64,000 nt of DNA from Candidatus Altimarinota bacterium (GCA_963694385.1 CAVOCY010000001.1:2186-66185); one strand, 5' to 3'; shown: positions 4,613 through 59,796, counted from the first letter of the stretch. The notes: generated from the sequence alone by a model not told the origin. A program made the numbers and translations.

Positions 4613-6351
4613 AATTCTCCCGCCAACATCTACCGTACCTCATCCTTCTGGGGTTATTTTTGATCGCATTTTTCTGGGGGCTTTCTGCTGGAATACTTGG
4701 ACATGATTACTTCTACTTCTTCCCAAAGCTTTTGGATGGGAAGTGGCACTTTATGCGCCAAGGCCTTTCGATGTTCTACTACACCCCACACATGTGTGGA
4801 GGATTTCCGGAATATGCCAATCCACAATCTATGTACTACAGTCTGCAGCAATTCCTCGTGCTGTTTTTGGATATGTGGCTCGCTGTTCGTCTTACGATCT
4901 TGATCTCGATGGCTATTGCCTACGTTGGTTGGTATCGCGTAGGACGAGATTTGATCAAGTTGAATCTACACTGGGCACATCTACTGGCTCTGATTATTAC
5001 AGCGCATGGATATCACTTTATGCACATGATTCCGGGGCACGTTGTCTTCCATAGTATGCCTATTATTGGATGGCTGCTTTGGTTGCTGTTTGATCGACGT
5101 CAGCACTCCGTAAAAGAATTGATAGTAAAAGCTGCATGGTTTGCGCTTGCAACTGCCTACATCCTCTATAGCGGTGGCTATATGGTTGCTGTCATGGCAC
5201 TCTTTGCGGTCGTTGCGCTACTGCCATATGAATTGATATTGCACGCTTCTGATCTGCGCTCTCGATTGAAAGTATTCATGAAGAACGTCATTGCCTGTGC
5301 TATTGGTGGAGCACTCATCAACAGCAGCAAGCTCGTTGCTACGTTTAGTTTTCTCAGATACTTTCCGCGAGAGGTACCATTTGAGCGCCTGTGGGATGAC
5401 ACGAGTATCTTGGTCTATATTTTCCGCGCACTGTTTGCTCTACCACAGAACAATGATCTCTACTGGGAGTTTGGTATGGGTAAATGGGGAGCGTTTCATG
5501 AGTACAGCTTCCTCGTATCACCTGTGATTTTGGTCGGTCTTGGCTGCAGCGTGTACCTTCTCTGGAAAAGGCGATCTGCAATCTTGAATCACAAATATCT
5601 ACTGATAGTGACTGCTTTAGTATCAATGATTCTTTTGATGTTCCTCATGCAACTCATGCAAGGATACGGATGGATGGTAACCCCACTCGAGCACCTGCCA
5701 ATATTCAGGGGGCTCCACGTTAATATGCGCTGGCTCTATGCGTTTTCCTTCTTACCTATTATCACTGGAGTGTGGGGTTTGCAGCAGTGCTTTGCACGCT
5801 ACTCACGCAACTTCGTTATTGCAGGAGGAGTAGTGACAATCGTCGCTTTTGTCTGGGGATACTACGGTATTTTGCACACCAATACTCTTCCACGCACACT
5901 GCCCTACCCCGAAATTATTGCAGCCCTAGAGACGCAAGAAGACTACATGGATCTGGATGTCGAAGACGCTTTCGATATGCGTGAAATGGGGCACAGTGGT
6001 TTTATTCCACTCATCTTTGGTGGTAACCACATTTACTGTAGCGAACCGATGTTACTCGGTACTTCGAATGTGCCCGACACAATAACTGTTGGTCCAGTAA
6101 TGCAGGAAAGTAATGGATTTCTGAACATGTATAACCCTGCATGCATGGTGTATCCCAAGGCAAATGATTGTGAATCTGGTGATCGTATTCTTGCATCCGA
6201 CAAAGAGAACCTCGAACGATTTCGCACCGGACAAAAGACAACCTGGAAGATGTCTCCACTCCAACACATCAGCAACTGGATTAGTCTATTTACACTAATT
6301 ACCAGTTTGATAATTATCATTCTACGTAAAAAGTTAACTGTTAATTGTTAA
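4609..6351 (+). CDS. Polytopic membrane protein, paralog 3 of 3
   Basis: 580-aa ORF whose ATG overlaps the upstream stop (ATGA). It carries the same conserved blocks, and its C-terminal codons run into a heptamer repeat. Confidence 0.75.
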   Translation: MKFSRQHLPYLILLGLFLIAFFWGLSAGILGHDYFYFFPKLLDGKWHFMRQGLSMFYYTPHMCGGFPEYANPQSMYYSLQQFLVLFLDMWLAVRLTILISMAIAYVGWYRVGRDLIKLNLHWAHLLALIITAHGYHFMHMIPGHVVFHSMPIIGWLLWLLFDRRQHSVKELIVKAAWFALATAYILYSGGYMVAVMALFAVVALLPYELILHASDLRSRLKVFMKNVIACAIGGALINSSKLVATFSFLRYFPREVPFERLWDDTSILVYIFRALFALPQNNDLYWEFGMGKWGAFHEYSFLVSPVILVGLGCSVYLLWKRRSAILNHKYLLIVTALVSMILLMFLMQLMQGYGWMVTPLEHLPIFRGLHVNMRWLYAFSFLPIITGVWGLQQCFARYSRNFVIAGGVVTIVAFVWGYYGILHTNTLPRTLPYPEIIAALETQEDYMDLDVEDAFDMREMGHSGFIPLIFGGNHIYCSEPMLLGTSNVPDTITVGPVMQESNGFLNMYNPACMVYPKANDCESGDRILASDKENLERFRTGQKTTWKMSPLQHISNWISLFTLITSLIIIILRKKLTVNC

Positions 6352-6353
6352 CT
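6333..6353. repeat. GTTAACT GTTAATT GTTAACT heptamer array / hairpin at a convergent gene junction
   Basis: Read directly. AGTTAAC can pair with GTTAACT. The array spans the stop of paralog 3 (+) and the stop of the M23 gene (-). Confidence 0.8.
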
Positions 6354-6354
6354 G

Positions 6355-7398
6355 CTATTCCAGATACAACACCGGATTCTTCTTGATACCACTGACACGT
6401 ACTTCAAAGTGCACGTGGATTCCTGTGGCACCATACACAAGCCCTGTGTTTCCCATCCAAGCGATTGTTTGTCCGCGTTGTACACGATCCCCTTCTTTGA
6501 CATGCAAATCTTTGTTGTGCCCATAAAGCGTCAGTAGGCCGTTCCCATGATCGACTTCTATCACATTACCGTACCCTCCATTCCATCCCTTATCTGCACG
6601 CACAACTATTCCATCTTCTGCAGCGTAAATCGGTCCCCCAAGTGAGCCACCACTTTTATCCTGCATATCCACAGCAAAGTGGCCTCCGTGGAATCGCTGT
6701 GTGTAGAAACAGGTTATGCTACACGGTTTTTGCAATACTCCTGCAGTTGGCGTTGGCGTAAACGGCGCAGTAGATTTTACTACAACTTCAACTGGCTTCT
6801 TTACTGGCTGTGCTGGATCCTCTGTAGATGGCTGCTCATCTACAGTAGCTACTTGTACCTGTTTTTCGATAATAGGACTTCCATGTGGAACAATCAGCTG
6901 TTGCCCCGCCATAATAAACTCACTCTTCAGTTCGTTCTGCGACATAATTTCATTCATCGGAATATCGTAGAGCTGCGCAATGCGCGAGAGTGTCTGTCCA
7001 CGAGAAACCGTATGAAGTATTCCATCCACTGGCAAAATAAGGAGCTCGTCTCCAGGGCGAATAGGCACTCCTGCCTGCAAGTGGTTTGCCCAACGAATCG
7101 TATCAACAGATACCGGATACCACCGAGAAAGTCGCTCGAGGCTATCGCCATCTTTTACAATATGGATTGTCCCCTTCGCATATGCCCTGCGAGACCCTTG
7201 CCTTGTTAGGGGGGACGTCTTTTTGATAAAACCATCCTCTACCAATAAAAACTTCTGTGCAGCGAGTGTTTGGGTTGGTGGGGCAAGAGCTGCTTTTGGA
7301 ATGTACGGTGGCAAGAGAGATCCTACAAAAAATACGACAACACATGCCACTTGAATACGCCTGATAAGCCAACGATGTGTTGGAGGGACCGGACTCAT
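6355..7398 (-). CDS. LysM-domain M23 family metallopeptidase
   Basis: 347 aa with an N-terminal anchor and two LysM-like segments (HIVKDGDSLERLSRWY.., HTVSRGQTLSRIAQLYDIP..). The C-terminal M23 signature is present (GGYGNVIEVDHGNGLLTLYGH ... GIHVHFEV). Confidence 0.85.
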   Translation of the reverse strand: MSPVPPTHRWLIRRIQVACVVVFFVGSLLPPYIPKAALAPPTQTLAAQKFLLVEDGFIKKTSPLTRQGSRRAYAKGTIHIVKDGDSLERLSRWYPVSVDTIRWANHLQAGVPIRPGDELLILPVDGILHTVSRGQTLSRIAQLYDIPMNEIMSQNELKSEFIMAGQQLIVPHGSPIIEKQVQVATVDEQPSTEDPAQPVKKPVEVVVKSTAPFTPTPTAGVLQKPCSITCFYTQRFHGGHFAVDMQDKSGGSLGGPIYAAEDGIVVRADKGWNGGYGNVIEVDHGNGLLTLYGHNKDLHVKEGDRVQRGQTIAWMGNTGLVYGATGIHVHFEVRVSGIKKNPVLYLE

Positions 7399-9341: not shown

Positions 9342-10427
9342 ATGAAACTTGCTATCGTCGCCGACTGGCTCCCTGTCTACGCAGGGGCAGAACATGTCAT
9401 CGCTCAGATGCATCATCTATGGCCAAATGCGCCGATTTTTACGACCGTAGTACATCGATCAAATATTGGCCCACTAGCTACTGCAGATATTCGAACAACC
9501 AGCCTACAAAAATGGTACAAGCTCACAGGAAATCATCAGTGGCTACTCCCATGGATGCCACGTGCAATAGAAACGATTGATCTTCGCGGCTTTGATGTGA
9601 TCTTAAGTTCCTCTCATGCTATTGGTAAGGGAATCATTCCTCCCAGTACTGCACGCCACATTTGTTACTGCCATACACCTATGCGCTACGCATGGGAGAT
9701 GGAAGATGAGTATCTTGATGACTTTAAGATACCGCAGTTTCTTCGTAGAACGATTAAGCAGAAGTTGAAACAGATTCGTAAGTGGGATCTTACTTCTGCA
9801 CAACGTGTCGATCAATTTATCGCAAACTCCACAACAGTGCAGGAACGCATCAAACGGATTTATAATCGTGACTCTGTCGTTATTCACCCCCCAGTTTCTG
9901 AGCGCTTCTTCGAAACCGACAACCGACAACCGACAACCGATTCCTACTATCTTACCGTCGGCCGCCACGTTCCGTACAAGCGAACAGATCTTCTGATAGA
10001 AGCAGCAAACAAGATGAAGATCCCTCTTAAGGTTGGAGGATCAGGAAAAGATTTTGATCGTCTTAAAGCAATGGCAGGACCTACTGTAGAAATGCTTGGC
10101 TTTGTCCCTGATGAGAAACTTCCTGAACTCTACAGCAATGCAAAAGCATTCCTCTTTGCACCGTTCGAAGATGCAGGAGTTGTACCACTAGAGGCGCAAG
10201 CCTGCGGCACTCCCGTCGTTGCATTTGGAAAAGGAGGTGTGCTGGATACCGTAATTGACGGGGAGACAGGGGTCTACTTTGGAGAGCAGACTGTTGATTC
10301 TGTAGTAGATGCTATACAGAAATTTGAGGGGATGCATTTTGATGAGTGTTTGATCCGTAAACATGCCGCTCAGTTCTCTGCAGAGCGGTTTAGAGAGAAG
10401 ATGCTTGAAGTATTTGACAACTTATAA
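9342..10427 (+). CDS. GT4-family glycosyltransferase
   Basis: The N-terminus MKLAIVADWL... is typical, so the internal ATG at 9342 is preferred over the ORF-track start at 9303. The C-terminal E-x7-E region is present (FEDAGVVPLEAQACGTPVVAFGKGG). It contains the heptamer array at 9914-9940. Confidence 0.85.
   Translation: MKLAIVADWLPVYAGAEHVIAQMHHLWPNAPIFTTVVHRSNIGPLATADIRTTSLQKWYKLTGNHQWLLPWMPRAIETIDLRGFDVILSSSHAIGKGIIPPSTARHICYCHTPMRYAWEMEDEYLDDFKIPQFLRRTIKQKLKQIRKWDLTSAQRVDQFIANSTTVQERIKRIYNRDSVVIHPPVSERFFETDNRQPTTDSYYLTVGRHVPYKRTDLLIEAANKMKIPLKVGGSGKDFDRLKAMAGPTVEMLGFVPDEKLPELYSNAKAFLFAPFEDAGVVPLEAQACGTPVVAFGKGGVLDTVIDGETGVYFGEQTVDSVVDAIQKFEGMHFDECLIRKHAAQFSAERFREKMLEVFDNL
9914..9940. 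repeat. (AACCGAC) x3.9 tandem heptamer array inside GT4 gene 1
   Basis: Read directly: aaccgac aaccgac aaccgac aaccga, encoding TDNRQPTTD. It is the reverse complement of the GGTTGTC/CGGTTGT family seen at 12106, 37270 and 45714. Confidence 0.9.
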
Positions 10428-10504
10428 GAAGTAAGTTTTAATGTACTTACTTGTGTTGGTCACGTGTGACCACGGTCTTTTTACACCAGAGCAGGGAGAA
10501 ACTG

Positions 10505-10855: not shown

Positions 10856-10887
10856 TGATCGTCGGTATAACCACCGATACAAGAAAA

Positions 10888-10921
10888 AGTCCTGCCTCAC
10901 ACTCGAGGCAGGACTGTTTTT
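10888..10921 (+). terminator. Rho-independent terminator
   Basis: An 11-bp stem AGTCCTGCCTC / GAGGCAGGACT with a 6-nt loop, followed by GTTTTT. Confidence 0.8.
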
Positions 10922-10984: not shown

Positions 10985-11048
10985 TGTGATTGTTGATTGG
11001 TGATTTGTCATTCGATTATGTTGTACTAATCACGTATCACAAATCACG
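10985..11048. repeat. Inverted pair of heptamer arrays: (NGTGATT)x4 / loop / (AATCACN)x3
   Basis: Read directly: TGTGATT GTTGATT GGTGATT TGTCATT ... AATCACG TATCACA AATCACG. It lies in a convergent intergenic spacer. Confidence 0.8.
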
Positions 11049-12105: not shown

Positions 12106-12133
12106 AGTTGTCAGTTCTCGGTTGTCACTTCTC
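12106..12133. repeat. Degenerate heptamer array AGTTGTC AGTTCTC GGTTGTC ACTTCTC
   Basis: Read directly in the divergent spacer between the CNNM gene and nnrD. It belongs to the GGTTGTC family. Confidence 0.7.
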
Positions 12134-12942: not shown

Positions 12943-13571
12943 TCACGCTCTTCCCGCAATTTACTGATCGAATAGACTGTCGTTTTTTAACGAAGAATGA
13001 TGATCGCAACGTTCCCGACCCCCGAGTTTGCCTTAATCAAATCCATGGAAATCGCACAATACTTTCTCGCGAACCAATGGAAAGTTCCGAAGAAGCGGAT
13101 GGAGTAATAACTGACCAAAAAGGATTACATCTCTTTATCCGCGCGGCCGACTGTCAGAACTTCGCGGTGTATGATCCGGTGCTCCACATTGGCGGTGTGT
13201 TACATGCCGGATGGAAGGGTATCGTCGCTGGTGCGATACCAGAATTTTTTCGGGTCTTTTCTGATACATTTGAGACTGATATTTCGCAGATTTTTGTCAC
13301 TGCTGGCCCCTCGCTCTGTAAGGCCTGTGCAGAGTTTTCGGACCCCAAATTAGAGCTGCCAGAGATCGATACTCAGTACGTTGATGGGAGGTGCGTAGAT
13401 CTCCAAAAAGTGGCCCAAGATCAAATGGTGGCGGCAGGGGTACTCCCCCAAAATTTCTTTCGGCACCCAGACTGCACCTGTTGCCAACATGAATCGTATT
13501 GGAGTTATAGAGGGGGAGACAGGAAAAGCGTCCAGAATGGGCAATCAAATATGCTTATATTGACGATTTAA
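12939..13571 (+). CDS. pgeF: YfiH/PgeF (DUF152) purine nucleoside phosphorylase / laccase-domain protein
   Basis: The ATG at 12939 overlaps the nnrD stop (ATGA). Motifs RAADCQNFAVYDP, HAGWKG and GPSLCKACAEF are present. Confidence 0.85.
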   Translation: MITLFPQFTDRIDCRFLTKNDDRNVPDPRVCLNQIHGNRTILSREPMESSEEADGVITDQKGLHLFIRAADCQNFAVYDPVLHIGGVLHAGWKGIVAGAIPEFFRVFSDTFETDISQIFVTAGPSLCKACAEFSDPKLELPEIDTQYVDGRCVDLQKVAQDQMVAAGVLPQNFFRHPDCTCCQHESYWSYRGGDRKSVQNGQSNMLILTI

Positions 13572-13651
13572 GTACAAATATCCATTTAATTGACATTTTT
13601 AACTAATTCATTACTATGCTACTAATTATTTAGTATATATAAGGATATCTT

Positions 13652-18379: not shown

Positions 18380-18382
18380 ATT

Positions 18383-48850: not shown

Positions 48851-48870
48851 TTCTCTTTGTCGCTCATTAT

Positions 48871-48954: not shown

Positions 48955-48998
48955 ACAGTGGCAGACAAAGGAAGAAGAATGAAAAGAAGCAATTTCTG

Positions 48999-50168
48999 CT
49001 AAGCAACAGCCTTAATGTCTGCAACAGCACTCTGCAAAGCAGAAATTTGATCTGTCTGTTCCCAAGAAAACTCGGACCGACCGAAGTGTCCGTACGCAGC
49101 TGTTGCCCTGTAGATTGGACGACGAAGATCAAGCGTCTTGATTATGCCCGAAGGCGTCATATCAAACACAGACTTTATTGCAGATTCGATAGCCTTGTCT
49201 TCCACAGTTCCTGTGCCAAATGTTGTGACGTGCACAGACACTGGTTCTGGATAACCGATAGCGTACGCAAGTTGTACTTCGCATCGATCTGCCATGCCTG
49301 CAGCAACGATATTTTTTGCAATGTACCGTGCCATGTATGCACCAGAGCGGTCTTGCTTGTTGGGTACTTTTCCACTGAATGCTCCTCCTCCGTGGCGACC
49401 CATACCACCGTATGTGTCTACGATAATCTTGCGACCTGTGAGCCCTGTGTCTCCGTGTGGTCCACCGATAATGAATGTTCCGGTTTCGTTCACGAGAATC
49501 TTTGTTTGCTCATCGAGATATTCTCCACATACAGGTTTGATTACATTCTCTAGAAGTTCTGATTTGATTTGTTCATGGGTGATACCTTCGTCGTGCTGTG
49601 CAGCCAGAACTACCGTGTCGACACGTAGCGGTTTGTCATTTTCATCATACTCAATCGTTACTTGACTCTTTCCGTCTGGGCGAAGGTAACTGAGCGTTCC
49701 ATCTTTACGGACATCTGTAAGACGCTTCGCAAGTTTGTGTGCAAGCATTATTGGAAGTGGCATGAGCTCTTTGGTCTCGTTACATGCGTATCCAAACATC
49801 AGCCCTTGGTCTCCTGCGCCCTGTGCTTTGTGTGCACCATCACTTTCATCTTCACCTTGGGCTATCTGCGCACTCTGTTCATGAATCGCATTAAGGACGC
49901 TGCAACTCTTGTAGTCGATACCGTAGTCTGCATTGTTATATCCAATATCTTTTAGAACATCACGTGCAACTTTTTGCACATCAACATACGTTGTTGTTGT
50001 GATCTCTCCGCCAACAACAATAAGACCTGTTGTGGTGTAGCATTCGCAGCAACATGCTCCTGTGGGGTCATCTTTCAGCACTGCATCGAGCATTGCATCT
50101 GAGATTTGGTCACATATCTTATCTGGGTGACCTTCGGTTACGGATTCTGAAGTGAAGAAGTATGACAT
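48999..50168 (-). CDS. metK: S-adenosylmethionine synthetase
   Basis: [25 protein letters not shown] and GGGAFSGK motifs are present. Confidence 0.95.
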
Positions 50169-50198
50169 GAGAGTAAGGGGTAGGGTTGGGAATTAGGG

Positions 50199-50340
50199 AA
50201 AAATCACCTCCCTGCGTAGAAGGAAGTGTAGATCTAAGGCTATCTTCCCCCGTTAGGGGCCAGATTTCCCACCATGCCCTCAAGGGGAGGTTGGGGAGCG
50301 ACTTTAAGCGGGCTGGTTCCCTATTCGCTACTCAGGATAG
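50199..50340 (-). promoter_or_regulatory. SAM-I-type riboswitch (aptamer 50240-50340) plus terminator (50199-50227) in the metK leader
   Basis: On the minus strand P1 is CUAUC...GAUAG. J1/2 is CUGAG and P2 contains AGGGAACCAGCCCG. These are followed by CAACC, a P3 hairpin and GGUGGGAAAUCU (compare the consensus GGUGCCAAUUCC). P4 is GCCCC-UAAC-GGGGG, followed by GAAGAUAG. Next comes the hairpin CCUUCCU-7nt-AGGGAGG followed by UGAUUUUU. GGAAG in the P1 3' strand can pair with CUUCC as an antiterminator. Confidence 0.65.
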
Positions 50341-50359
50341 AAACGATGATGTTAAGAGG

Positions 50360-50387
50360 ATTATACGTATCTGCGCGCCTAAATCAA
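50360..50387 (-). promoter_or_regulatory. Putative metK promoter
   Basis: On the minus strand: TTGATT, a 16-nt spacer, then TATAAT, about 20 nt upstream of the riboswitch P1. Confidence 0.5.
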
Positions 50388-50400
50388 GTGGTTTTACGCT

Positions 50401-50646
50401 CTACTTAGCAAACTTGTTGTACAGCCAGGCAAGAACGACACCTCCAATACCAGCGTCTACAAATGCCCAAACAGCACCGACAACAATCCCAATAGGATTT
50501 GCACCAGAACCGATATAGTACTTACTCATCCACGTAACAATGTCTGCTCCATACCCATTTGTCATAGTGAGTACTGCAAGAACTGCGTAACCAGCTGCCC
50601 AGAGGATACCAAGGGCGAGACCAAAGGCTTTAACATCAAGTTTCAT
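50401..50646 (-). CDS. Small membrane protein (about 81 aa)
   Basis: Two or three hydrophobic helices from MKLDVKAFGLALGILWAAGY. Confidence 0.5.
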   Translation of the reverse strand: MKLDVKAFGLALGILWAAGYAVLAVLTMTNGYGADIVTWMSKYYIGSGANPIGIVVGAVWAFVDAGIGGVVLAWLYNKFAK

Positions 50647-50726
50647 AATAGTAAGGGAAGAATAGGTGAATGATATCACACTTCATTAATAGACCGAAGC
50701 ACCACTTTTACACTACAATCCTCTCC

Positions 50727-52154
50727 ATGAGCGAAATCTCAACTTCACATCCATTTACTCTTATCCTCTTTGGAGGATCTGGGCACCTAGCGCAAATCAA
50801 ATTGTATCCAGCGCTCTATGTATTAGCGCTAAAAAAACGCTTACCCAAAGATTACGCCATCGTGGGGTTTGCCCGCAGTGACATGGATGATGCTGCATTT
50901 CGTACACTCGTAGAAAGTGCGATTCGCAAAGAGATGATCGAAGTGACAGAGCCGGCTCTCGAAGAATTTATGTCACACGTGTATTACCAACAGGGTCAGT
51001 ATGATGATGTTGAAGACTATAAGAAGTTATCAGAACGATTAGTGGGTATTGAAAAACAGTGGGCAGTGGGCAGTGGGCAGTGTGTACGCTTGGCATATTA
51101 TTCTGTACCACCAACAGTCTTCGGTGCCATTTCGCATAACTTGTGTGAAGGAAACGTGCATGATGGCAAGATTCCATTTCGTTGTATTGTCGAAAAACCT
51201 GTAGGGCATGACCTTGAAAGTTTTGAAGATATTAAAAAGCAATTGGTTGGATGTTTTGCCGAAGATGAAATCTATTTGCTCGACCACTATCTTGGCAAAG
51301 AAGCGGTGCGTAACATTTACTATTTGCGCCACGCGAATCCTATCTTCGAACGCATTTTAAAAAACACACTGATTGATCACGTAGAAATTACCGCGATGGA
51401 GAACAAGGGGATAGAGGGGAGGGCAGGATACTTCGAAGCTGCAGGAACATTCCGCGATATGTTCCAGTCGCATCTTCTTATGATGGCATCACTGCTAACT
51501 ATGCGCATTCAAAGTGATGAAGACTTGGCTGCAGGACGCGAAGATGCGCTCTCGCAGTTTTATCTCCCTGCTGCAACGGACATGGGGGACATCGCACTCC
51601 AAGCGCAGTACAGCGGGTACCAAGATGAAGACGGTGTAGAAAAAGGATCTCGCACAAATACGTTTGCGTGCCTAAAGCTAATGACACGTATCTCGAAGTG
51701 GGATGGTGTGCCGTTTTATTTGCACAGTGGTAAGAAACTCGAAAAAAAAGAGACGCGTATCAGTATTCAATTCCAAGAGCCTAGACCTGTAGGGGAAGGC
51801 TCTGCTCCAAACCGATTGGATATCATCCTGCAAGGAGAAGCAGGAATGCGTATGCATTTACAGACAAAAATGGGAGGAACGGAGCCTGCATTCCGTCCAC
51901 TCGTTCTCGAAGATCCACTGGTGTGTGTTGGTGACTGTTTGCCAGAACATAGCTTGATGATTTTGGAGGCGATCCATGGAAGGCATCACTGGTTCCTTGA
52001 TTTTGATGAAATTAAAACCTCTTGGAGACTGGTAGATCCTGTACAAAAACATCTTGATGCTTCCGATACTCCTCTACACTCATACAAAGAAGGCAGCAAA
52101 GGCCCAAAGGCTGCAGATCAGTGGATAGAAAAGGATGGAATTGAATGGTTTTAA
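50727..52154 (+). CDS. zwf: Glucose-6-phosphate 1-dehydrogenase
   Basis: Start at MSEISTSHPFTLILFGGSGHLA. EKPVGHD and LDHYLGKE motifs are present. It contains the heptamer array at 51057-51084. Confidence 0.9.
   Translation: MSEISTSHPFTLILFGGSGHLAQIKLYPALYVLALKKRLPKDYAIVGFARSDMDDAAFRTLVESAIRKEMIEVTEPALEEFMSHVYYQQGQYDDVEDYKKLSERLVGIEKQWAVGSGQCVRLAYYSVPPTVFGAISHNLCEGNVHDGKIPFRCIVEKPVGHDLESFEDIKKQLVGCFAEDEIYLLDHYLGKEAVRNIYYLRHANPIFERILKNTLIDHVEITAMENKGIEGRAGYFEAAGTFRDMFQSHLLMMASLLTMRIQSDEDLAAGREDALSQFYLPAATDMGDIALQAQYSGYQDEDGVEKGSRTNTFACLKLMTRISKWDGVPFYLHSGKKLEKKETRISIQFQEPRPVGEGSAPNRLDIILQGEAGMRMHLQTKMGGTEPAFRPLVLEDPLVCVGDCLPEHSLMILEAIHGRHHWFLDFDEIKTSWRLVDPVQKHLDASDTPLHSYKEGSKGPKAADQWIEKDGIEWF
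51057..51084. repeat. (CAGTGGG)x3 + CAGTGTG heptamer array inside zwf
   Basis: Read directly. It encodes QWAVGSGQC just before the conserved R.(F/A)YY(L/S).PP segment. Confidence 0.9.
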
Positions 52155-52163
52155 TACATACCT

Positions 52164-52862
52164 ATGCAATACGATCACATTAAAGCATCATCAGAAGAAG
52201 ACTTTGTTGCGCAAAGTGTAGACATTCTCGTTGCACGTATCTCTCAAGGTATTGATGAGTTTGGTAGCGCCATACTCGGGCTTTCTGGTGGATCAACACC
52301 CCAGCCGATTTACGAGGCACTTGGGAAGCAGCCTATTGACTGGAGCAAGGTGTTTATTTTCTTGGTTGATGATCGCTATATAGAAAGAGATCACAATGAT
52401 AGTAACCAGAAGATGGTGCATGAAACATTGTTGATGCATGCAAAGATTCCCGAAGACCACATTACGTTTCCTGATACGAGTTTGCCTCTTGAGGAATGTA
52501 TTGAGCAGTACGAAGGAGAGCTTGCAGAACTGTTATCGAAAGGCATTCCCCATATTGTCACTCTCGGTCTTGGTAGCGATGGTCACATCGCATCATTATT
52601 TCCTCCTGTGCCAGCGGCAGGCTTTGGCGATCATCTTGTGATTCATACAGAGACTGATGATTTCGCTGTGCATGATCGCATCTCAACCACGATGGTGGTG
52701 ATAGGAAGTGCAGATCGCAAAATCTTTTTCTTAAAAGGAGAAGACAAGAAGTTTGTATGGGATGAAATGATGAAATCTGAAGATGGCGAAGATATGGATC
52801 GCTGGCCTGCAAAAGCAGCACTGCAACTTGGGGGTGGGGTGGTGGTTAGCGCATTTGCTTAA
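52164..52862 (+). CDS. pgl: 6-phosphogluconolactonase
   Basis: GLSGGSTP, VDDRY and LGLGSDGHIASLFP motifs are present. Confidence 0.9.
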   Translation: MQYDHIKASSEEDFVAQSVDILVARISQGIDEFGSAILGLSGGSTPQPIYEALGKQPIDWSKVFIFLVDDRYIERDHNDSNQKMVHETLLMHAKIPEDHITFPDTSLPLEECIEQYEGELAELLSKGIPHIVTLGLGSDGHIASLFPPVPAAGFGDHLVIHTETDDFAVHDRISTTMVVIGSADRKIFFLKGEDKKFVWDEMMKSEDGEDMDRWPAKAALQLGGGVVVSAFA

Positions 52863-53193
52863 TGTGTTTGAAGATCTTGTTTCCGATAACAAGGATAATG
52901 TCTATTCGCCACGGTGCATCGAACTCTTTTTGACTCATCCACTTCCACGCAGCCCTGCGCAGTGCGCGTTTTTTACGGGGAGTCATTCCAAGAGCCGGAA
53001 GAAAGTCTGCATCGTATTGTGAACGTGTTTTAACTTCGGCAAATACGAGCATTCTCTCCTCTTTGTCGTAGGCAATGATATCTATTTCATCACGACCAAG
53101 GCGAACATTGCGATCGTAAATCTTGTAATTACGTTCTTGAAGATACGCTGTAGCTAGCGCTTCTCCTCGCTTTCCTATTTGTAGATGATTCAT
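52846..53193 (-). CDS. yraN: YraN-family (UPF0102) endonuclease-like protein
   Basis: GKRGEALATAYLQERNYKI..RN.R..RDEIDIIA. It has a 17-nt convergent overlap with pgl. Confidence 0.8.
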   Translation of the reverse strand: MNHLQIGKRGEALATAYLQERNYKIYDRNVRLGRDEIDIIAYDKEERMLVFAEVKTRSQYDADFLPALGMTPRKKRALRRAAWKWMSQKEFDAPWRIDIILVIGNKIFKHIKQMR

Positions 53194-53261
53194 AACAAAG
53201 GTGTACGGTTGTCTACTCCATTCTATCGACAGTGCAAGGTGTACACAAGTACACTCGGTCC

Positions 53262-54767
53262 ATGCTTACAAAGTTAACCAGTTTTCAGAGCATCGGGTTA
53301 AAAAGTGAAAGGGTTACTGTCGAAGTCGGCGCAGTGCGCGGTGGTGAAGAGCCTAAGTTCTACATAGTGGGACTAGGGGACACCGCCGTGCAAGAAAGTA
53401 AGCGCCGCGTGCAAATGGCACTGCGCAGTAGTGGATTTAAACTCGCATCTGGGCGCACGATTACCGTTAACCTTGCGCCGGCTAACTTGCGCAAAACAGG
53501 TCCGCGCTATGACCTACCTATTGCACTTGGACTTCTGATTATTAACGGGCAAGTGCTTGTTGATGATAAAAAACTTGCGAGTATGGCATTTCTTGGCGAG
53601 CTCGCATTGGATGGGGGCTTGCGTCACATCAGTGGTGTGCTGCCTGCAGCTATTTCTTGTAGAGACCAAGGAATAAAAACCATTGTTGTTCCTACTGCCA
53701 ATGGTGCAGAGGCTGCGCTGATTCCAGGGTTAAATGTAATTGCAGTCGATAATTTGGAAGAGTTGGTGAATATTCTTAATGGCGAACAAGCGCCAAAGGC
53801 CATCGAACCTCCTGCATCAAGTGTGCTGCCAATCAGTGGCTTAATAGACTTTTCTGATGTGCGCGGACAAGAACACTGCAAGCGTGCACTCGAGATTGCT
53901 GCTGCTGGTGGGCACAATGTACTGATGAGTGGTGCACCTGGCTCTGGAAAAACACTTCTTGCAAAAGCATTTCGCGGAATTTTACCGCCACTGACACAAG
54001 AAGAATCTATTGAAGTCAGTCAGATCTATTCCATCGCAAACTTACTTACAAGCGACAGTCCACTTATAGAAGAGCGACCATTTCGCGTTGTGCATCACAC
54101 TGCTTCGGGAGTTAGTATTGTTGGTGGAGGACAAGTGCCCGGGCCTGGAGAAATAAGCTTGGCCCATAGAGGAGTACTGTTTTTGGATGAGCTTGCAGAG
54201 TTTCCAACACAAGTGCTCGAAGTATTGCGCCAACCTCTCGAAGACAGAACAATTACGATTACGCGCGCAAATGGTAGTGTGAAATTTCCTGCGGACTTTA
54301 TTATGGTGGCGGCAATGAATCCACCTCAATACAGCTCATCATCTGCACGGAAAATTGCGAATCGCATTAGCCAACCACTACTGGATAGAATTGATCTCAC
54401 GATTGATGTGCAACCAGTACCCATAGAAGATTTACAAAAAAAGCCTGATGAAAATGCAGAAACGTCTTCTGTGATTTTAGATCGAGTACTGAAAGCAAGA
54501 ACAAGGCAGTCGAATCGATTTGAAACATTGCCTATTTCTACGAATAAAGAAATGAATGTGAAGCACATCGATACACTTTGCGTACTTGATGAACCTTCGA
54601 AGCAACTCTTAAAAAGTGCTGTAGACCGGCTGGGTCTTTCTGCTCGTGCGTATCATCGCACCATTAAAGTAGCGCGTACTATTGCAGATTTAGCAGATAG
54701 GGAGGATCTAGAGGCAGGACACATCGCAGAAGCACTGCAATATCGACAGAGTATTTGTGGAGAATAA
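53262..54767 (+). CDS. comM: YifB/ComM Mg-chelatase-like AAA+ ATPase
   Basis: N-terminal Lon-like domain, Walker A MSGAPGSGKT, Walker B VLFLDE, and a C-terminal HRTIKVARTIADL segment. Confidence 0.9.
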   Translation: MLTKLTSFQSIGLKSERVTVEVGAVRGGEEPKFYIVGLGDTAVQESKRRVQMALRSSGFKLASGRTITVNLAPANLRKTGPRYDLPIALGLLIINGQVLVDDKKLASMAFLGELALDGGLRHISGVLPAAISCRDQGIKTIVVPTANGAEAALIPGLNVIAVDNLEELVNILNGEQAPKAIEPPASSVLPISGLIDFSDVRGQEHCKRALEIAAAGGHNVLMSGAPGSGKTLLAKAFRGILPPLTQEESIEVSQIYSIANLLTSDSPLIEERPFRVVHHTASGVSIVGGGQVPGPGEISLAHRGVLFLDELAEFPTQVLEVLRQPLEDRTITITRANGSVKFPADFIMVAAMNPPQYSSSSARKIANRISQPLLDRIDLTIDVQPVPIEDLQKKPDENAETSSVILDRVLKARTRQSNRFETLPISTNKEMNVKHIDTLCVLDEPSKQLLKSAVDRLGLSARAYHRTIKVARTIADLADREDLEAGHIAEALQYRQSICGE

Positions 54768-54794
54768 GGACAGACTTCGCTAGTATCCCTCCTG

Positions 54795-55634
54795 ATGCAC
54801 TTCGGAGACGCTTTGACGGCCGCTACAAAGGAGAAATCGCCTGTTTGTGTAGGATTAGATCCAAATGTCAGCAAACTCCCTGAGGGAATCTCTCAGGATG
54901 CAGAAGGAATGCTTACCTTCTGTAAGGGGATTATTGATGCCGTAAAAGACGTAGCCGCCTGTGTAAAACCACAAATGGCCTATTTCGAAGAGTTGGGATG
55001 GGAAGGAATGAGAACATTCTGGGAAACATGTGCCTACGCAAAAGAGCAGGGGCTACTTGTTATCGCAGATGGAAAGCGCAATGACATCGGCTCTACATGC
55101 GAAGCGTACGCAAGGGCATACCTCAATGAACTTAGCCCTATTGATGCGCTAACCGTTTCACCTTACCTCGGTACAGATGGACTTAATCCATTCGTAGAAC
55201 TTGCCTTTAAAAACAACAAGGGAATCTTTGTCCTCGTAAAAACTAGCAACCCGAGTAGCGGTGACATACAAGATTTACCGTGTGGTGACGAAGCAGTGCA
55301 CGAACACATGGCACAGATTGTAGAGGGGATTGCAGCACAAAACTGTGGCCCAGAGTTTCACCTCTCCTGCGTCGGAGCTGTTGTAGGCGCTACGTACCCC
55401 GAAGAGATGAAATACCTCCGCACACTGATGCCACACGTCCCAATTTTGATCCCTGGTTACGGTGCACAAGGTGGAAGCGCTGCAGATATCATTGGAGGAT
55501 TTATTCCAGACGGAACCGGAGCGATAGTAAATTCTTCTCGCGGTATTATCTTTGCAAGTAGTGGAGGCGACTGGAAAGAAGCGGCAGAGAAAGCAGCGTT
55601 GGATATGGCAGAAGACATCAAAAGCGCACTCTAG
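54795..55634 (+). CDS. pyrF: Orotidine-5'-phosphate decarboxylase (type 2)
   Basis: VCVGLDP, KPQMAYFE and DGKRNDIGST motifs are present. Confidence 0.9.
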   Translation: MHFGDALTAATKEKSPVCVGLDPNVSKLPEGISQDAEGMLTFCKGIIDAVKDVAACVKPQMAYFEELGWEGMRTFWETCAYAKEQGLLVIADGKRNDIGSTCEAYARAYLNELSPIDALTVSPYLGTDGLNPFVELAFKNNKGIFVLVKTSNPSSGDIQDLPCGDEAVHEHMAQIVEGIAAQNCGPEFHLSCVGAVVGATYPEEMKYLRTLMPHVPILIPGYGAQGGSAADIIGGFIPDGTGAIVNSSRGIIFASSGGDWKEAAEKAALDMAEDIKSAL

Positions 55635-57281
55635 TTACTTCCATATACTTCCCTCTGCGATGGGATGTGGAAGTTCTATCCAGTTATACGCACCTTGACC
55701 ATCAGTCCATTGAATATGTCCCATGATACCTGGTTCGATGCTCGTAGAAATAATGCCAGGCTCTGCAAGGTCTATCTGCAATATAGGATCTGCAAGTGTC
55801 TCATCGATTTCTAGTTTTCCCCATAGCTGCACAATGATACTTTCGTGCTCTATGACACCAACAGATGCTGGGATATTAAAACAGTTAATATACTTAGAAC
55901 CCTCTGTGGAACACGCCACTGTAATTGTTGAATGAAAAGCACCGAGTGAAAACTGAGAAAGAAGCACACCGTGTTTTTGTGCGATAGAAAATGTCAGATG
56001 ATTAATCTGAAGCTCTGCCCCTTCTAAATGCTCTCCTTCAATTTCAAACTCTCCAAGTAATACACTCTCTCCTTCGCCAATATCCACTACAGGAGGACGG
56101 TTATTACTGACGTTTGTTATATTTGCACTCGCTGTTTGATGTGAAGGATATGCTGTGTCTGTAGCGATAATTTGATAGGATTCATCAAGCCCAAAAGGGC
56201 TTGCGTAGAGAGATATCCACTTTACTTGGATTAGCTCTTCGGGGAATCCTACTGTGACATCTTGCAGTACTGCTTCGATACCAAGAACTTTTCCTTCTAC
56301 GGGGATGATGTAGTTTCCAAATACATTGTCTGCATCCGCCTTCCACGTGCGATCAAATTTATCAAATGTATCAGGTACTAGCTCTGCAATACGTTTACCA
56401 AATTGGTCAGTGAGATACACGCTACGAATGTTTTTTTGCTCTTCACGAAACTTTACTGTGATGTTGCGTATCCAAACAGATTCTGACCGAGGTTGAAAGA
56501 ATCCACTTGCAATAATTTCCCGTGATCCGAGTAGAAGAAAATGGCTTTTTGCAGGGAAAATATGAACCACTTCTGGCTCTTCAATTGACTCTTTTTTTAG
56601 CTCTTCTTCGATCTCCTTCTCTTGTACACGCTCTGCTATCTCTTTGGCAATAACAAGATTTAAACTTTTCTCTGCAAGACGATACGTGTCTAGTTCTCCT
56701 TCTTCGTGCGCACGGTATGCAGCTGCAAGACGTGCCATTTGTCCGCGTGTTATGGAGCGGTCGAATTTGATAGATGAAGGAAGCCCCGTCTTATTAAACT
56801 GTGCAGCGCGTACATATCCTGCATACCATGGTTCGTCATCCGCTGAGAATGCAACGTAGTTATATAACTCTCCCAGAATTTTAAGGGCCTCTGCATAATT
56901 TACTGGTCGTCCTGGTTTAAATTCACCATCCTGATACCCACTTACCATGCCGCGCTTCTTTGCCAAACAAACGTACTGGGAAAACCAGTCATCACTTGAA
57001 ACATCAGGAAAGCAGTTCGCAGAATCCGATTTACTCACACGAACCTTTGGATAACTTAATAATGCAATCTTTAAAAACTCTGCACGGTTGAGTGTTTGAT
57101 TTGGGCGAAACGTCCCGTCGGGGTTTCCTTGTATCGCTCCAATTGATGTCAGCAAACTAATACCTGCAGACTCTGCAGGGATAAACGGTGCATCTGTGTA
57201 GAGCAGGCTTAAGTTGCGGAATTCCAGTGCTGCTACCTGAAATGGAAGAATTAGGCCGATGATGATTGCTGCCCGCTTCAT
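55635..57281 (-). CDS. Secreted protein with three N-terminal SLH (S-layer homology) repeats
   Basis: Signal peptide MKRAAIIIGLILPFQVAA (an alternative ATG lies at 57299). SLH-like repeats include ..GAIQGNPDGTFRPNQTLNRAEFLKIAL, FPDVSSDDWFSQYV..AKKRGMVSGYQDGEFKPGRPVNYAEALKIL and ..ITRGQMARLAA. The stop abuts the pyrF stop. Confidence 0.75.
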   Translation of the reverse strand: MKRAAIIIGLILPFQVAALEFRNLSLLYTDAPFIPAESAGISLLTSIGAIQGNPDGTFRPNQTLNRAEFLKIALLSYPKVRVSKSDSANCFPDVSSDDWFSQYVCLAKKRGMVSGYQDGEFKPGRPVNYAEALKILGELYNYVAFSADDEPWYAGYVRAAQFNKTGLPSSIKFDRSITRGQMARLAAAYRAHEEGELDTYRLAEKSLNLVIAKEIAERVQEKEIEEELKKESIEEPEVVHIFPAKSHFLLLGSREIIASGFFQPRSESVWIRNITVKFREEQKNIRSVYLTDQFGKRIAELVPDTFDKFDRTWKADADNVFGNYIIPVEGKVLGIEAVLQDVTVGFPEELIQVKWISLYASPFGLDESYQIIATDTAYPSHQTASANITNVSNNRPPVVDIGEGESVLLGEFEIEGEHLEGAELQINHLTFSIAQKHGVLLSQFSLGAFHSTITVACSTEGSKYINCFNIPASVGVIEHESIIVQLWGKLEIDETLADPILQIDLAEPGIISTSIEPGIMGHIQWTDGQGAYNWIELPHPIAEGSIWK

Positions 57282-57316
57282 TACGAGGCATTCTACCATA
57301 CGATTTAGTAAATCAA

Positions 57317-57391
57317 GCCCCTGTAGTTCAATGGATAGAACGGCCCCCTCCTAAGGGGCAGATGTAGGTTCGATTCCTACCGGGGGTACCA
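57317..57391 (+). tRNA. trnR: tRNA-Arg (anticodon CCU), CCA end encoded
   Basis: Hand fold: acceptor GCCCCTG/CGGGGGT (with G.U pairs), D stem GTTC/GAAC, anticodon stem GCCCC/GGGGC with loop CTCCTAA, T arm GTAGG-TTCGATT-CCTAC. Confidence 0.9.
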
Positions 57392-57393
57392 TT

Positions 57394-57696
57394 CTAATTC
57401 ATCTCCTGTTCGTTTAAGAGTGCACATGTCATGCCAATTAAGACATTGTCTCTTGTTATACCTCTTCGTAAGAGGTGATCTTGTACCTGTGATGACCTGT
57501 CACCTATTGCACCGCTTTGTTGAGCCTTCCTATCAATAGCTAACAAGAATCGTGCACTGAGTAGCGTGTTTCTATTGCAAATATCTATCATCTCTAAAAC
57601 GTCAGAATAGTAAGGCATTCTCCCTGCATCAATCCCATTTAAAAACTCCTGCATGTTTCTTTCGTCTACTTCTTGTTCTTTCAATGCAGATAACAT
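57394..57696 (-). CDS. Hypothetical protein (100 aa)
   Basis: ORF only. It is tightly packed with the upstream gene. Confidence 0.4.
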   Translation of the reverse strand: MLSALKEQEVDERNMQEFLNGIDAGRMPYYSDVLEMIDICNRNTLLSARFLLAIDRKAQQSGAIGDRSSQVQDHLLRRGITRDNVLIGMTCALLNEQEMN

Positions 57697-57698
57697 GC

Positions 57699-58238
57699 TT
57701 ACTTTGAAGGCTTAAGAATAACGACTTCTCTTCCTTCTACAGGAAGACCTCCTTTAAGCTTGTACTCTTTCTCGATCTCTTTGTCCTGTGCTCCGACAAT
57801 CTTAAGGAGTTCCACAAATGTTTCCTCGTCTTTGGTAGGAAGTGGCACAAGTACTCGTGGATCTACTTCGTCGATGATTTTCTGTGCAATTTTTGTATCA
57901 TCTGCTGGGATGCAGAGGATATCAACATCACCAAGAAGCTGCAGGTTATTATCTGTCCAATCGTGAAGAGGAGTGGAAAGAAATGCTACGCGCACTTTAC
58001 CGTCATCCACTACATAACTCACACGCTGCCCCTCTTCGTGACCAATACCACGAATAGAAACACCACCAATGTCATATTCACCAGGCCAAGAAACAACACC
58101 GGAGCTTACTTCGTCTTCGGGACTTCCAAGAAGAGAGATGTTAGCCTTTTCGTCTGCTTTGGCAGGAAATGCAACAATAACTGTACCGTTGATATCCACC
58201 TTTGTTGTGGTGCCGCCAAGAGAAGTGATTGTGATCAT
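57699..58238 (-). CDS. Hypothetical protein, possibly a degenerate MBL-fold (UPF0173-like) protein
   Basis: 179 aa with beta-rich N-terminal MITITSLGG...VDING..IVAFP. No HxHxDH motif is seen. Confidence 0.35.
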   Translation of the reverse strand: MITITSLGGTTTKVDINGTVIVAFPAKADEKANISLLGSPEDEVSSGVVSWPGEYDIGGVSIRGIGHEEGQRVSYVVDDGKVRVAFLSTPLHDWTDNNLQLLGDVDILCIPADDTKIAQKIIDEVDPRVLVPLPTKDEETFVELLKIVGAQDKEIEKEYKLKGGLPVEGREVVILKPSK

Positions 58239-58284
58239 GTGGAGAGATGGTATGTGAAGTTTGAATGAAGTGCTAGGGATTGAT

Positions 58285-58358
58285 GTAGATTGTGAAGAGA
58301 AATAAGTAATGAGTGAAGAGTAATTATCTATCTTTACTTTTCACTTTTCACTTTTAAC
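58285..58358. repeat. Inverted 7-nt-periodic arrays: GTAG/GTGA/GAAA/GTAA/GTGA/GTAA cores then TTAC/TCAC/TCAC/TAAC cores
   Basis: The cores start at 58285, 58292, 58299, 58306, 58313, 58320 | 58334, 58341, 58348, 58355. Array B encodes the murA C-terminus (KVKSEK). Confidence 0.75.
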
Positions 58359-59686
58359 TCTTGCTTGATGTTTGCTTCTACATGCTCCTGCTTAATAGTT
58401 CTTATAACTTCAGTCGGATCTTCCAGTTCTACCTTCGTAATATTTGCTCCAAGGCTGCGTAACTTATCATCAAGATGATCATATCCACGCTCGATATATC
58501 GTACGTCTGTAATTGTTGTTTCTCCTTCTGCACAGAGTGCAGCAATCACCATAGCAGCACCTGCGCGGATATCATTACTCGCAACTGTGTGACCACGCAA
58601 AGTAGTTGGCCCAATGATCAACGCCTGATGTGAATTGAGAATCTCTATTTGTGCTCCCATTTTTTCCAGCTCGTAGAGATAAGCCATACGACCTTCGAAT
58701 AACCGCTCAAACAAGCGAGATACTCCTGTAGCCTGTGTCATAGCAACACCAAGTGGTGCCTGAAGATCTGTCGGTAATCCTGGGAAGATATTCGTCCGTG
58801 CCTCTATTGCATTGAGTGAGGAGATCTCTCCATCTACAAACAATACTTTTTCTGCTGAGTCGTACTTCCACTCTGCACCCATACGCCTTAGGACATCGAG
58901 AAAGTTTGTAAGATGATCATATTCGGTGTCATGCAAACGCACTTTACCACGTGTAACAAGAGCTGCGATTGCAAGCCCTCCAGCCTCTAGATAATCCGAA
59001 GGAACACGATACTCAGCACACGCAAGTTGCGTGCGACCTCGAACTGTAACGGTGTGCGTTCCGATACCTTCTACTTCTGCACCCATGGCACAGATAAATT
59101 TCTCTACTGCTTGAACGTGTGGTTCTGCAGCTGCCATTTCGATACGTGTTTCCCCTGGTGTCAGTGCCGCTGCAAGAATGGCATTCTCTGTAGCAGTAAC
59201 CGAAAACTCTGGAAGGATAACGTGTCCAGGCTTGAGCGTTCCTTGCAGATGCAACACATCATTACTACTCAAATCTTGCGCTCCGAGTTGTGTCAGTGCA
59301 CGAATGTGCGCTTCTACCGGACGCTTCCCAAGTACACATCCTCCTGGGTAACACATCTCCACTACTCCAAAGCGTGCTAGTAGTGGCCCAAGCAATACGA
59401 TAGAACCACGAAGTTTGGAAACAAGCTCTGCTGGAATTGGTTTGCTTTGTAAATTCTGCGTTTGGATACGTACTGTCCCATCTTCGAAACTTGTCTCGGC
59501 ACCTAGGTAGTTGAGGATCTGTAGCATCACTTTAATGTCCCGCAAAAATGGAACGTTGGTCAGCACTGTCTCTCCTTTACAAAGTACCGACGCAGCAATC
59601 AACGGCAACGCTGCGTTTTTGGATCCACTGATGGTGACGTCTCCTTTGAGGGGCACCCCTCCTTGAATGCGATAACGGATATCCAT
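58334..59686 (-). CDS. murA: UDP-N-acetylglucosamine 1-carboxyvinyltransferase
   Basis: GSKNAALPLIAAS and the active-site Cys context PGGCVLGKRPVEAH. TATAAT lies 8 nt upstream of the ATG. Confidence 0.95.
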   Translation of the reverse strand: MDIRYRIQGGVPLKGDVTISGSKNAALPLIAASVLCKGETVLTNVPFLRDIKVMLQILNYLGAETSFEDGTVRIQTQNLQSKPIPAELVSKLRGSIVLLGPLLARFGVVEMCYPGGCVLGKRPVEAHIRALTQLGAQDLSSNDVLHLQGTLKPGHVILPEFSVTATENAILAAALTPGETRIEMAAAEPHVQAVEKFICAMGAEVEGIGTHTVTVRGRTQLACAEYRVPSDYLEAGGLAIAALVTRGKVRLHDTEYDHLTNFLDVLRRMGAEWKYDSAEKVLFVDGEISSLNAIEARTNIFPGLPTDLQAPLGVAMTQATGVSRLFERLFEGRMAYLYELEKMGAQIEILNSHQALIIGPTTLRGHTVASNDIRAGAAMVIAALCAEGETTITDVRYIERGYDHLDDKLRSLGANITKVELEDPTEVIRTIKQEHVEANIKQELKVKSEK

Positions 59687-59737
59687 AGAGGCAGATTATA
59701 GCGTAAATGGGGTTGGTGAAAGCAAAAGAATTGGGGA

Positions 59738-59796
59738 TTAGTAGCTAGTAGCTAGGAGATAGGGGGCCTAGTCCCAAACTACTAACTACTAGCCCC
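59738..59796. repeat. (TTAGTAG CTAGTAG CTAGGAG ATAGGGG) / loop / (CTACTAA CTACTAG CCCC) inverted heptamer arrays
   Basis: Read directly between the lspA stop and the murA start. AGGGGGC and GCCCCT can also pair. Confidence 0.8.

Follow-up and report, generated by a model that had tools for sequence, protein, structure and literature searches.

The intergenic spacers of a 64,000-nt stretch of DNA from Candidatus Altimarinota bacterium (GCA_963694385.1 CAVOCY010000001.1:2186-66185; hereafter the window, with positions counted from its first nucleotide) carry short tandem arrays of 7-nt units, mostly set as inverted pairs. Local tandem duplications and deletions in steps of 7 nt, of the kind expected from slipped-strand mispairing, create and alter these arrays, and each arm of a hairpin changes on its own, by one unit at a time. 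The process works on any local sequence, including coding DNA and a conserved promoter-proximal heptamer, and inserts no mobile sequence. Array position is loosely conserved; unit sequence and even the presence of an array turn over between species. The explanation that we favor as probable is that the elements are STRR-like long simple-sequence repeats (LSSRs) with a 7-nt unit, made by slipped-strand mispairing and concentrated on hairpin-prone spacer DNA.

Unit-step change and turnover of the arrays

The hairpin at 34732-34816, between a TPM-domain gene (TPM) and BacA, exists in nature as three alleles, separated by one 7-nt unit in one arm or in both. Allele A, with about 4.7 and 3 units per arm, is that of the window, of L085 and of 19 similar places (L numbers are our handles for the sequences compared with the window). 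In allele B (L175) only the GTTTTCC arm is one unit shorter, and in allele C (L086-L088) each arm is one unit shorter. The DNA around these alleles is about 99.6-99.9% identical per aligned stretch. L175 differs from the window at only four places in 14.4 kb, and two of these are repeat indels: the unit at 34732-34816 and a 12-nt GGGTTA change in TPM. The arrays mutate in whole-unit steps, much faster than by point mutation. A single coupled event altering both arms is ruled out by allele B, which changed in one arm only; as the arms vary separately, there is no need to invoke one event that affects both. The GGGTTA change lies in a telomere-like hexamer array, (GGGTTA)4.5, at 35677-35703 within the 5' end of TPM, where L175 is shorter by two units (12 nt, four residues); heptamers are thus not the only repeats that slip.

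Independent homogenization of the arms is also visible within single hairpins. At 34732-34816 the (GGAAAGT)n and (GTTTTCC)n arms are each perfect and yet mismatch at two of the seven paired positions, and in the hairpin at 36288-36367 a perfect (TAATTCT)4 faces a partner arm that is 75% degenerate. Moreover, in L095 the conserved heptamer TCCACTA beside the dnaJ start is present in three tandem copies, as against a single copy in other species.

A first-pass annotation, made from the window sequence alone, had proposed comparing orthologous spacers and natural populations for copy-number change. The comparison showed copy-number change in the alleles at 34732-34816 and a turnover of units between species. 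Five orthologous spacers were compared across relatives: lspA-murA, murA-lactamase, Hsp20<>DUF368 (VCA0040-like), dnaJ<>TSP3 and topA<>HU. In these, several species carry hairpins of unrelated units with a period of 7 or 9 nt, and some have no hairpin. The Hsp20<>DUF368 spacer illustrates both outcomes, with unrelated hairpins of 7- or 9-nt period in some relatives and none in L095 and L097. The dnaJ<>TSP3 spacer of L095 has two unpaired arrays instead of a hairpin. The 34732 hairpin is missing from L096 and L097, in which the BacA promoter region comes immediately after the TPM stop codon. Between the window and L096, the hairpins at dnaJ are orthologous but have drifted units, and the same holds for the array at the murA tail in most species. 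The annotation had also favored a generating mechanism or a function at the level of structure over a conserved binding site, and the unit-step alleles, the triplication in L095, the arrays inside genes and the unrelated units of orthologous spacers all agree with that view.

Array census in spacers and genes

The whole window was scanned for arrays at lag 7 (at least 12 of 14 matches per 21 nt), with first-order Markov resamples as the null. Fifteen strong period-7 arrays were found, whereas the resamples gave 0.4 on average and never more than 2. The same scan of the window returned no arrays at period 5 or at periods 8-11, and 10 arrays at period 6 (about 1.4 by chance); among periods 5-11, 7 is the sole one enriched apart from coding-type periods. 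In spacer DNA alone the autocorrelation excess peaks at lag 7 (z = 4.4 against dinucleotide shuffles), and Tandem Repeats Finder places period-7 arrays at or adjoining each main coordinate of the first-pass annotation. The lag-7 and Tandem Repeats Finder check that the annotation had suggested, run on the window, thus gives a period-7 excess over shuffled and resampled controls. Its proposed refutation, namely that the arrays would vanish on re-assembly, fails: at least 10 independent JGI, ENA and Logan assemblies, retrieved by exact-protein look-ups, carry the arrays, which rules out an assembly artefact. Of these assemblies, seven span 48334-64000, five 24.8-45.7 kb and six 1.1-22 kb; their identity to the window is 99.6-99.99%.

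Inverted array pairs forming long imperfect hairpins are present in 10 spacers. The annotation had counted at least 12 patterned spacers, and its individual pairs were largely confirmed (Table), although the array at 6333-6354 is one short self-complementary array. Its weaker cases are weak indeed: 10429-10452 is a plain 8-bp hairpin, and 38322-38342 and 39615-39640 are marginal. Fold z-scores of the listed pairs range from -1.6 to -7.9, typically with a 1-3-nt internal loop per seven bases. All three junction types are occupied, as had been claimed: three to four of seven convergent spacers, four of 19 tandem spacers and three of seven divergent spacers. Arrays overlap the stop codons of paralog 3 (the 580-aa protein), DUF368 (VCA0040-like), TPM and murA, again as first described. 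Together, these elements take up about 13% of the scarce spacer DNA.

Eight of the strong arrays lie in about 6.3 kb of spacer and seven in about 57.7 kb of coding DNA, a density approximately 10 times higher in spacers. This difference would be expected because a step of plus or minus 7 nt in a gene is a frameshift. An inverted partner accompanies seven of the eight intergenic arrays versus two of the seven coding arrays (95th percentile of partner identity under the null, 0.59).

Table. Period-7 and related arrays and hairpins of the window, in order of position
Position	Strand	Element	Location	Remarks
4071-4090	+	(CTCACGC)2.9	569-aa paralog	in gene
6333-6354		GTTAACT x3.1, self-complementary	last codons and stop of 580-aa paralog (4609-6351)	3-nt convergent junction
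9914-9940	+	(AACCGAC)3.9	interdomain linker of second GT4 glycosyltransferase	in gene; unit family of 37269 and 45715
10985-11048		inverted pair NGTGATT / AATCACN	convergent spacer	pair listed earlier, confirmed; separate canonical terminator at 10884-10919
12106-12133		single unpaired array GTTGTCA / GTTCTCG	divergent spacer	unit related to arrays 37269 and 45715
27671-27727		degenerate GTRA-N3 / TYAC-N3 hairpin	between divergent topA and HU	pair listed earlier, confirmed
30028-30098		degenerate GTRA-N3 hairpin	between divergent dnaJ and TSP3-repeat gene	pair listed earlier, confirmed; orthologous hairpin in L096
34732-34816		(GGAAAGT)4.7 - loop - (GTTTTCC)3 hairpin	TPM-domain gene / BacA	pair listed earlier, confirmed; longest perfect element
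36288-36367		GAATTAT (degenerate) / (TAATTCT)4 hairpin	overlaps end of DUF368 (VCA0040-like) and start of LemA	pair listed earlier, confirmed
37270-37347		(CGGTTGT)3.3 / NAACTGA-type hairpin	between divergent DUF368 (VCA0040-like) and Hsp20	pair listed earlier, confirmed
37870-37942		hairpin with arms of 9-nt period (GAAATCGAG)	convergent spacer	T-rich tails on both strands; unlisted in first-pass annotation
43229-43254	+	imperfect AGAGTGA array	coiled-coil arm of SerRS (seryl-tRNA synthetase)	in gene; weakest case
45518-45540	+	short GTRA-N3 array TAGTAAT TCGTGAC TAGTGAA	begins at stop codon of 79-aa ORF	
45715-45856	+	inverted pair: (GTTGTCG)3.9 at 45715-45741, ACTGAGA/AACCGAC at 45826-45856	Glyco_transf_4 (N-terminal) domain of GT4 glycosyltransferase	in gene
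48004-48037	+	(AACAATT)4.9	amidase/SpoIID gene	in gene; one unit altered where TAA would fall in frame
48855-48970		palindromic hairpin, 58-nt arms, periodicity of about 8-9 nt	between convergent amidase/SpoIID and MetK	z about -7.8
51057-51082	+	(CAGTGGG)3.7	G6PD loop	in gene
58285-58358		GTRA-N3 / (ACTTTTC)3.4 hairpin	overlaps last codons and stop of murA	pair listed earlier, confirmed
59738-59796		CTAGTAG / CTACTAA hairpin	between lspA and murA promoter	pair listed earlier, confirmed

The location of seven of the 15 strong arrays within real coding sequences was absent from the first-pass annotation. In these arrays, the unit that would put TGA or TAA in frame is altered. The G6PD loop of L004 has a different heptamer array (TCAGGAG/TTAGGAG), and those of L001 and L002 have none. 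Orthologues of the GT4 and SerRS proteins are of equal length, and so the array overwrote existing sequence and did not add to it. The SerRS array may in part be low-complexity coding sequence. Two of three tandem paralogous genes at 1167-6351 (579, 569 and 580 aa, with 4-nt overlaps) carry heptamer arrays, one at 4071 and the other at its stop codon at 6333. Pfam gave no match to the 569- and 580-aa paralogs at E <= 0.001, and none of the three had a precomputed Pfam hit.

Arm polarity and competing explanations

Of 28 hairpins taken from the window and its relatives, 25 share one polarity: their 5' arm is rich in G and poor in C, and their 3' arm shows the opposite bias; the pooled base counts are G 308 and C 132 for 5' arms, and G 106 and C 219 for 3' arms. 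Since the reverse complement of a hairpin keeps this polarity, neither the gene strand nor the replication strand accounts for it. Stop codons in all three frames are found in 48% of 5' arms versus 15% of 3' arms, which follows from the period of 7 and the C-poor composition. Selection for stop codons was considered and rejected, as 5' arms contain 178 stop trinucleotides against 165 expected from composition and are not enriched.

How slippage might produce paired hairpins can be pictured as follows. A repeat that folds back on itself would stabilize slipped intermediates, and hairpin-prone arrays would therefore keep expanding; balanced arms are perhaps better tolerated than unpaired arrays. 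Most copies are probably dispensable spacer DNA. A minority, located between a stop codon and the next promoter and having a T-rich sense tail (34732, 36288 and 59738, and 37870 with such tails on both strands), probably double as transcript-end hairpins. As related in PMC4679880 and PMC4692102, the sole published idea for the 7-nt step is that it corresponds to the stretch of DNA that the replicative polymerase holds (Mrazek 2007).

Several observations weigh against slippage as the whole explanation. Only one array varied among near-identical strains and all others were invariant, although invariance is expected for arrays that are shorter, less pure or inside genes. Pure slippage explains neither the near-universal inverted pairing of the intergenic arrays nor their strand-symmetric polarity, and it does not account for degenerate arrays in which a 4-nt GTRA core is retained while the 3-nt spacers vary. 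The length-neutral replacement in GT4 and SerRS does not fit simple one-way expansion and needs paired +7/-7 events or a conversion-like process. Finally, the T-rich sense tails at three of the four tandem-junction hairpins of the window hint at function.

Among the alternatives, a function at the RNA level has the most to recommend it, and we regard it as possible but unlikely. The hairpins would be long-stem intrinsic or bidirectional terminators, 3'-end stabilizers or RNase III sites, and the 7-nt period a by-product of their growth. Start codons in the window mostly have a TATAAT/CTATCC-like box at about -8 to -15 (for example, 59687-59700, 37229-37245, 30004-30030 and 54780-54794) and Shine-Dalgarno motifs are rare, suggesting that the mRNAs are mostly leaderless or have very short leaders. 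Given the position of these boxes, tandem-junction hairpins fall between a stop codon and the next promoter, and many hairpins sit exactly between a stop codon and the next -10-like box. Judging from their tails, the four T-tailed hairpins named above may work as transcript-end hairpins. The one at 59738-59796, which is stabler on the sense strand, is the most terminator-like of the set. Furthermore, several species have hairpins at corresponding junctions, and the 5'-purine/3'-pyrimidine polarity resembles the A-tract/U-tract symmetry of bidirectional terminators. However, 11 hairpins are distributed over eight tandem or convergent and three divergent junctions, with one further pair inside a gene, and hairpins between divergent promoters cannot serve as transcript-end hairpins. 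There is no consistent T-tail, at least six T being present in only eight of 52 tails, and the stems are long, AT-rich and interrupted, in contrast to the short GC-rich stem of a terminator. Canonical GC-rich, T-tailed terminators exist separately from the arrays (10884-10919, 18300-18336, 28261-28276 and 31838-31860) and have the opposite polarity, with a C-rich 5' arm and a G-rich 3' arm; a terminator scan of the 25-45 kb stretch called no periodic hairpin. Across 11 tandem contexts the advantage in folding energy or G-U pairs lay with the sense strand in four, with the antisense strand in six and with neither in one, so that selection at the RNA level through G-U wobble or folding-energy asymmetry was rejected. 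Rfam 15, searched at the gathering threshold and at E <= 0.1, returned two tRNAs only and no match to an array or hairpin. The absence of the hairpin from close relatives at Hsp20<>DUF368 and TPM-BacA also speaks against such a role. The earlier claim that the elements are not simply terminators is therefore upheld by the divergent and in-gene cases, the scarcity of T-tails and the lack of sense-strand bias.

Neutral slippage predicts neither the polarity nor the recurrence of hairpins at the same junctions with unrelated units. A speculative idea, to which we give rather low probability, is that the hairpins are selected, lineage-wide and strand-symmetric 'junction insulators' in the compact, largely leaderless genomes of the Candidate Phyla Radiation (CPR). 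If so, they would stop stray translation and transcription, or absorb supercoiling, from both directions: the first arm met on either strand would be G-rich, C-poor and have stops in three frames, and the second would close a long interrupted stem. The 7-nt slippage would then be the means to build, tune and replace insulators quickly.

That the arrays are binding sites for an oligomeric nucleic-acid-binding protein, recognizing a short core at 7-nt spacing in a network such as that proposed for the TAACTGA repeats of Beggiatoaceae, is quite improbable. The GTRA core with variable 3-nt spacers recurs at 7-nt spacing at no fewer than six loci (eight matches versus 0.07 expected), and NAACTGA-like units are found at 37325-37345 and 45826. 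The CGGTTGT unit is likewise shared by four loci (9914, in reverse complement, 37269, 45715 and, as a variant, 12107). Unit sequence, described at first as locus-specific, is diverse as stated, but these two families recur across loci. The overall unit consensus is weak (information content 5.25 versus 4.59 +/- 0.24 in the null), and across Peribacteria no single 4-mer core dominates, with TTTC, CTTT, TGAT, GTGA, CGAA and TTCC at four to five loci each; a universal unit consensus was rejected on these grounds. Many units are unrelated (GGAAAGT, GAATTAT, CTAGTAG), orthologous spacers swap their unit or lose the array, and arrays occur in every context, coding DNA included, all of which disfavors a binding-site network.

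The remaining three proposals are very unlikely. Insertion of miniature mobile palindromes (REP/REPIN, MITE or cyanobacterial SDR-like elements) into spacers would suit the palindromic layout, the intergenic bias and the 34732 hairpin, which amounts to an insertion of about 85 nt exactly after the TPM stop relative to L096 and L097. However, the arms lengthen through duplication of units in place, neither terminal repeats nor target duplications were observed, and no transposase or RAYT domain is present in the Pfam lists for about 1.1-22.1 kb and 24.8-64 kb of the window. A dispersed family is ruled out by all-against-all BLAST of the spacers, in which only 12-21-nt matches at the level of units link the loci. 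Equally small is the chance that the arrays are contingency (phase-variation) loci, at which copy-number change would switch the expression of neighboring genes or their C-terminal tails. Phase variation through heptamers has been described in Haemophilus (PMC8262952), unit-step polymorphism exists here and a step of plus or minus 7 nt in the several arrays that overlap stops would alter a C-terminal tail, but those arrays are invariant in all strains, the neighbors are housekeeping genes (murA, lspA, BacA, G6PD, SerRS) and not surface antigens, and the one array that varies is noncoding and precedes the BacA -10 box, so that a change in unit number leaves promoter spacing as it is. Similarly, there is scant reason to see the spacers as cruciforms that absorb transcription-generated supercoiling or bind architectural proteins: the symmetry on both strands, the lack of RNA-strand bias and the hairpins between divergent promoters, where negative supercoiling accumulates, are in its favor, but many stems are weak (4-bp helices with internal loops between) and the hairpins are dispensable in close relatives.

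Related repeats, host and other features of the window

The STRR heptanucleotide repeats of heterocystous cyanobacteria (Calothrix/Nostoc), reportedly described by Mazel and colleagues in 1990, had been named as the nearest precedent. That comparison holds, although the heptanucleotide LSSRs of many bacteria form a wider one. As in STRRs, tandem 7-nt units occur in few copies per array at many, mostly intergenic loci with no established function. Unlike STRRs, the arrays belong to a CPR Peribacter, their units are diverse and most are inverted pairs; moreover, tandem copies of the STRR1-3 units CCCCAGT, TTGGTCA and CAACAGT were found on neither strand of the window. According to the accounts in PMC4679880 and PMC4692102, heptanucleotides outnumber every other class of long simple-sequence repeats in many prokaryotes and are sporadically distributed (Mrazek 2007). 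The prominence of period 7 among periods of 5-11 nt, the intergenic enrichment, the sporadic phylogeny and the slippage origin are shared with LSSRs as these accounts describe them, and the unit-step polymorphism is shown here. The window likewise has the marks of LSSRs: period-7 arrays in excess of chance, whole-unit copy change and depletion in coding DNA. The LSSR survey predates CPR genomes and, as far as the two accounts relate it, does not include the paired-hairpin layout, arm polarity or in-gene arrays of the present case.

Inverted heptamer pairs were noted earlier in Xanthomonas and Nostoc (PMC4692102; PMC4679880). Those of Xanthomonas (GGGAATC) and of Nostoc (GGGGAYT) belong to repeats that recur between the same genes of related species, differ extensively in length and sequence and in some cases are inverted repeats able to form stem-loops (Rehm et al. 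2015, PMC4692102). They form one G-rich family with G-quadruplex potential, whereas the units described here are AT-rich, varied and free of G-runs (checked for GTTAACT, GTGATTN, GGAAAGT, GAATTAT, CGGTTGT and CTAGTAG), except for CAGTGGG in G6PD. Neither GGGAATC nor GGGGATT occurs in tandem in the window, and the six units checked do not have the run of at least three G required of a G-quadruplex repeat. TAACTGA direct repeats are known from marine Beggiatoaceae, cyanobacteria and Bacteroidetes (MacGregor 2015, PMC4679880) and tandem-heptanucleotide elements from Geobacter metallireducens (PMC2700814), in both cases between and within genes (PMC4679880, PMC2700814). They share with the present arrays the occurrence of short heptamer arrays at many intergenic and in-gene loci, as well as NAACTGA-like units. 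However, the TAACTGA arrays consist of one conserved unit and mostly stand as direct repeats immediately before start codons (BOGUAY has just one indirect repeat), whereas the present arrays have many different units and occur in inverted pairs and at all types of junction; tandem TAACTGA was not found in the window. REP/REPIN elements (PMC3116915) are also intergenic imperfect palindromes at many junctions, but the present elements have no conserved family sequence, no RAYT gene in the parts of the window covered by the Pfam lists and grow by unit slippage. The case therefore fits the heptamer-repeat kind on every feature tested and falls outside the definitions of STRR (by units and host), G-quadruplex repeats, the TAACTGA network, REP/MITE elements and intrinsic terminators. 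It represents a new host for the poorly understood heptamer repeats of cyanobacteria and Xanthomonas, and no new element type.

The MurA protein of the window is 81-90% identical to those of Candidatus Peribacter/Peribacteria metagenome-assembled genomes (MAGs) (Peregrinibacteria, CPR), and gene order is conserved across them. On these sequence grounds, the host is identified as a marine Candidatus Peribacter of the CPR; a cyanobacterial origin was ruled out, the closest relatives being Peribacteria MAGs. No intermediate relatives at 90-98% identity were found, the identity of homologues of the TPM-domain protein falling from 99% to 79%. Such repeats go unmentioned in the one paper found on complete Peribacteria genomes. 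Their spread is patchy, in agreement with the sporadic distribution in PMC4679880: arrays are present in other Peribacteria, at a Moranbacteria locus, in Caldithrix, in a Clostridia MAG and in a Thermodesulfobacteriota MAG, and most other loci are without them. Near murA, dense heptamer arrays were noted in unrelated phyla, namely, in Caldithrix abyssi (L036; 1512-1578 and 12438-12719), the Clostridia MAG (L044; 11316-11450) and Moranbacteria (L016; 66-89, 6522-6544, 8359-8389 and 12298-12322). Several of these are inverted pairs and some have TCAGTTN/NAACTGA-like units; most proteobacterial loci have no arrays.

The origin and function of STRR-type heptamer repeats are unsettled, and here they are found in a CPR host with a small genome. 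The alleles add natural-population evidence, drawn from independent metagenomes, of change by a single 7-nt unit with the arms acting independently, and arm polarity and in-gene arrays constrain any model. Since the host is abundant in public marine metagenomes, slippage rate, allele spectrum and transcript ends can be measured from existing reads, with no need for cultivation.

Some further features of the window were noted. The cumulative GC skew has its minimum near 30 kb (region of about 24000-32000), close to topA, HU and dnaJ, which may mark a strand-switch region or a replication origin; neither dnaA nor dnaN was seen. The window ends within a giant gene (61768-64000) of up to 4992 aa in longer contigs (L079/L080), with weak or faint matches to FG-GAP, Kelch and Laminin_G_3. 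An 8.1-kb block at 13478-21580 is a strain-variable island, being replaced by about 62 nt in five otherwise 99.8% identical assemblies (L090-L094). It codes for a 1203-aa repeat protein, proteins of 283 and 336 aa and a 705-aa HATPase_c-like protein. Unrelated to the heptamers, tandem repeats of 33 nt and 42 nt at 14872-14992 and 15697-15785 encode in-frame peptide repeats of the 1203-aa protein.

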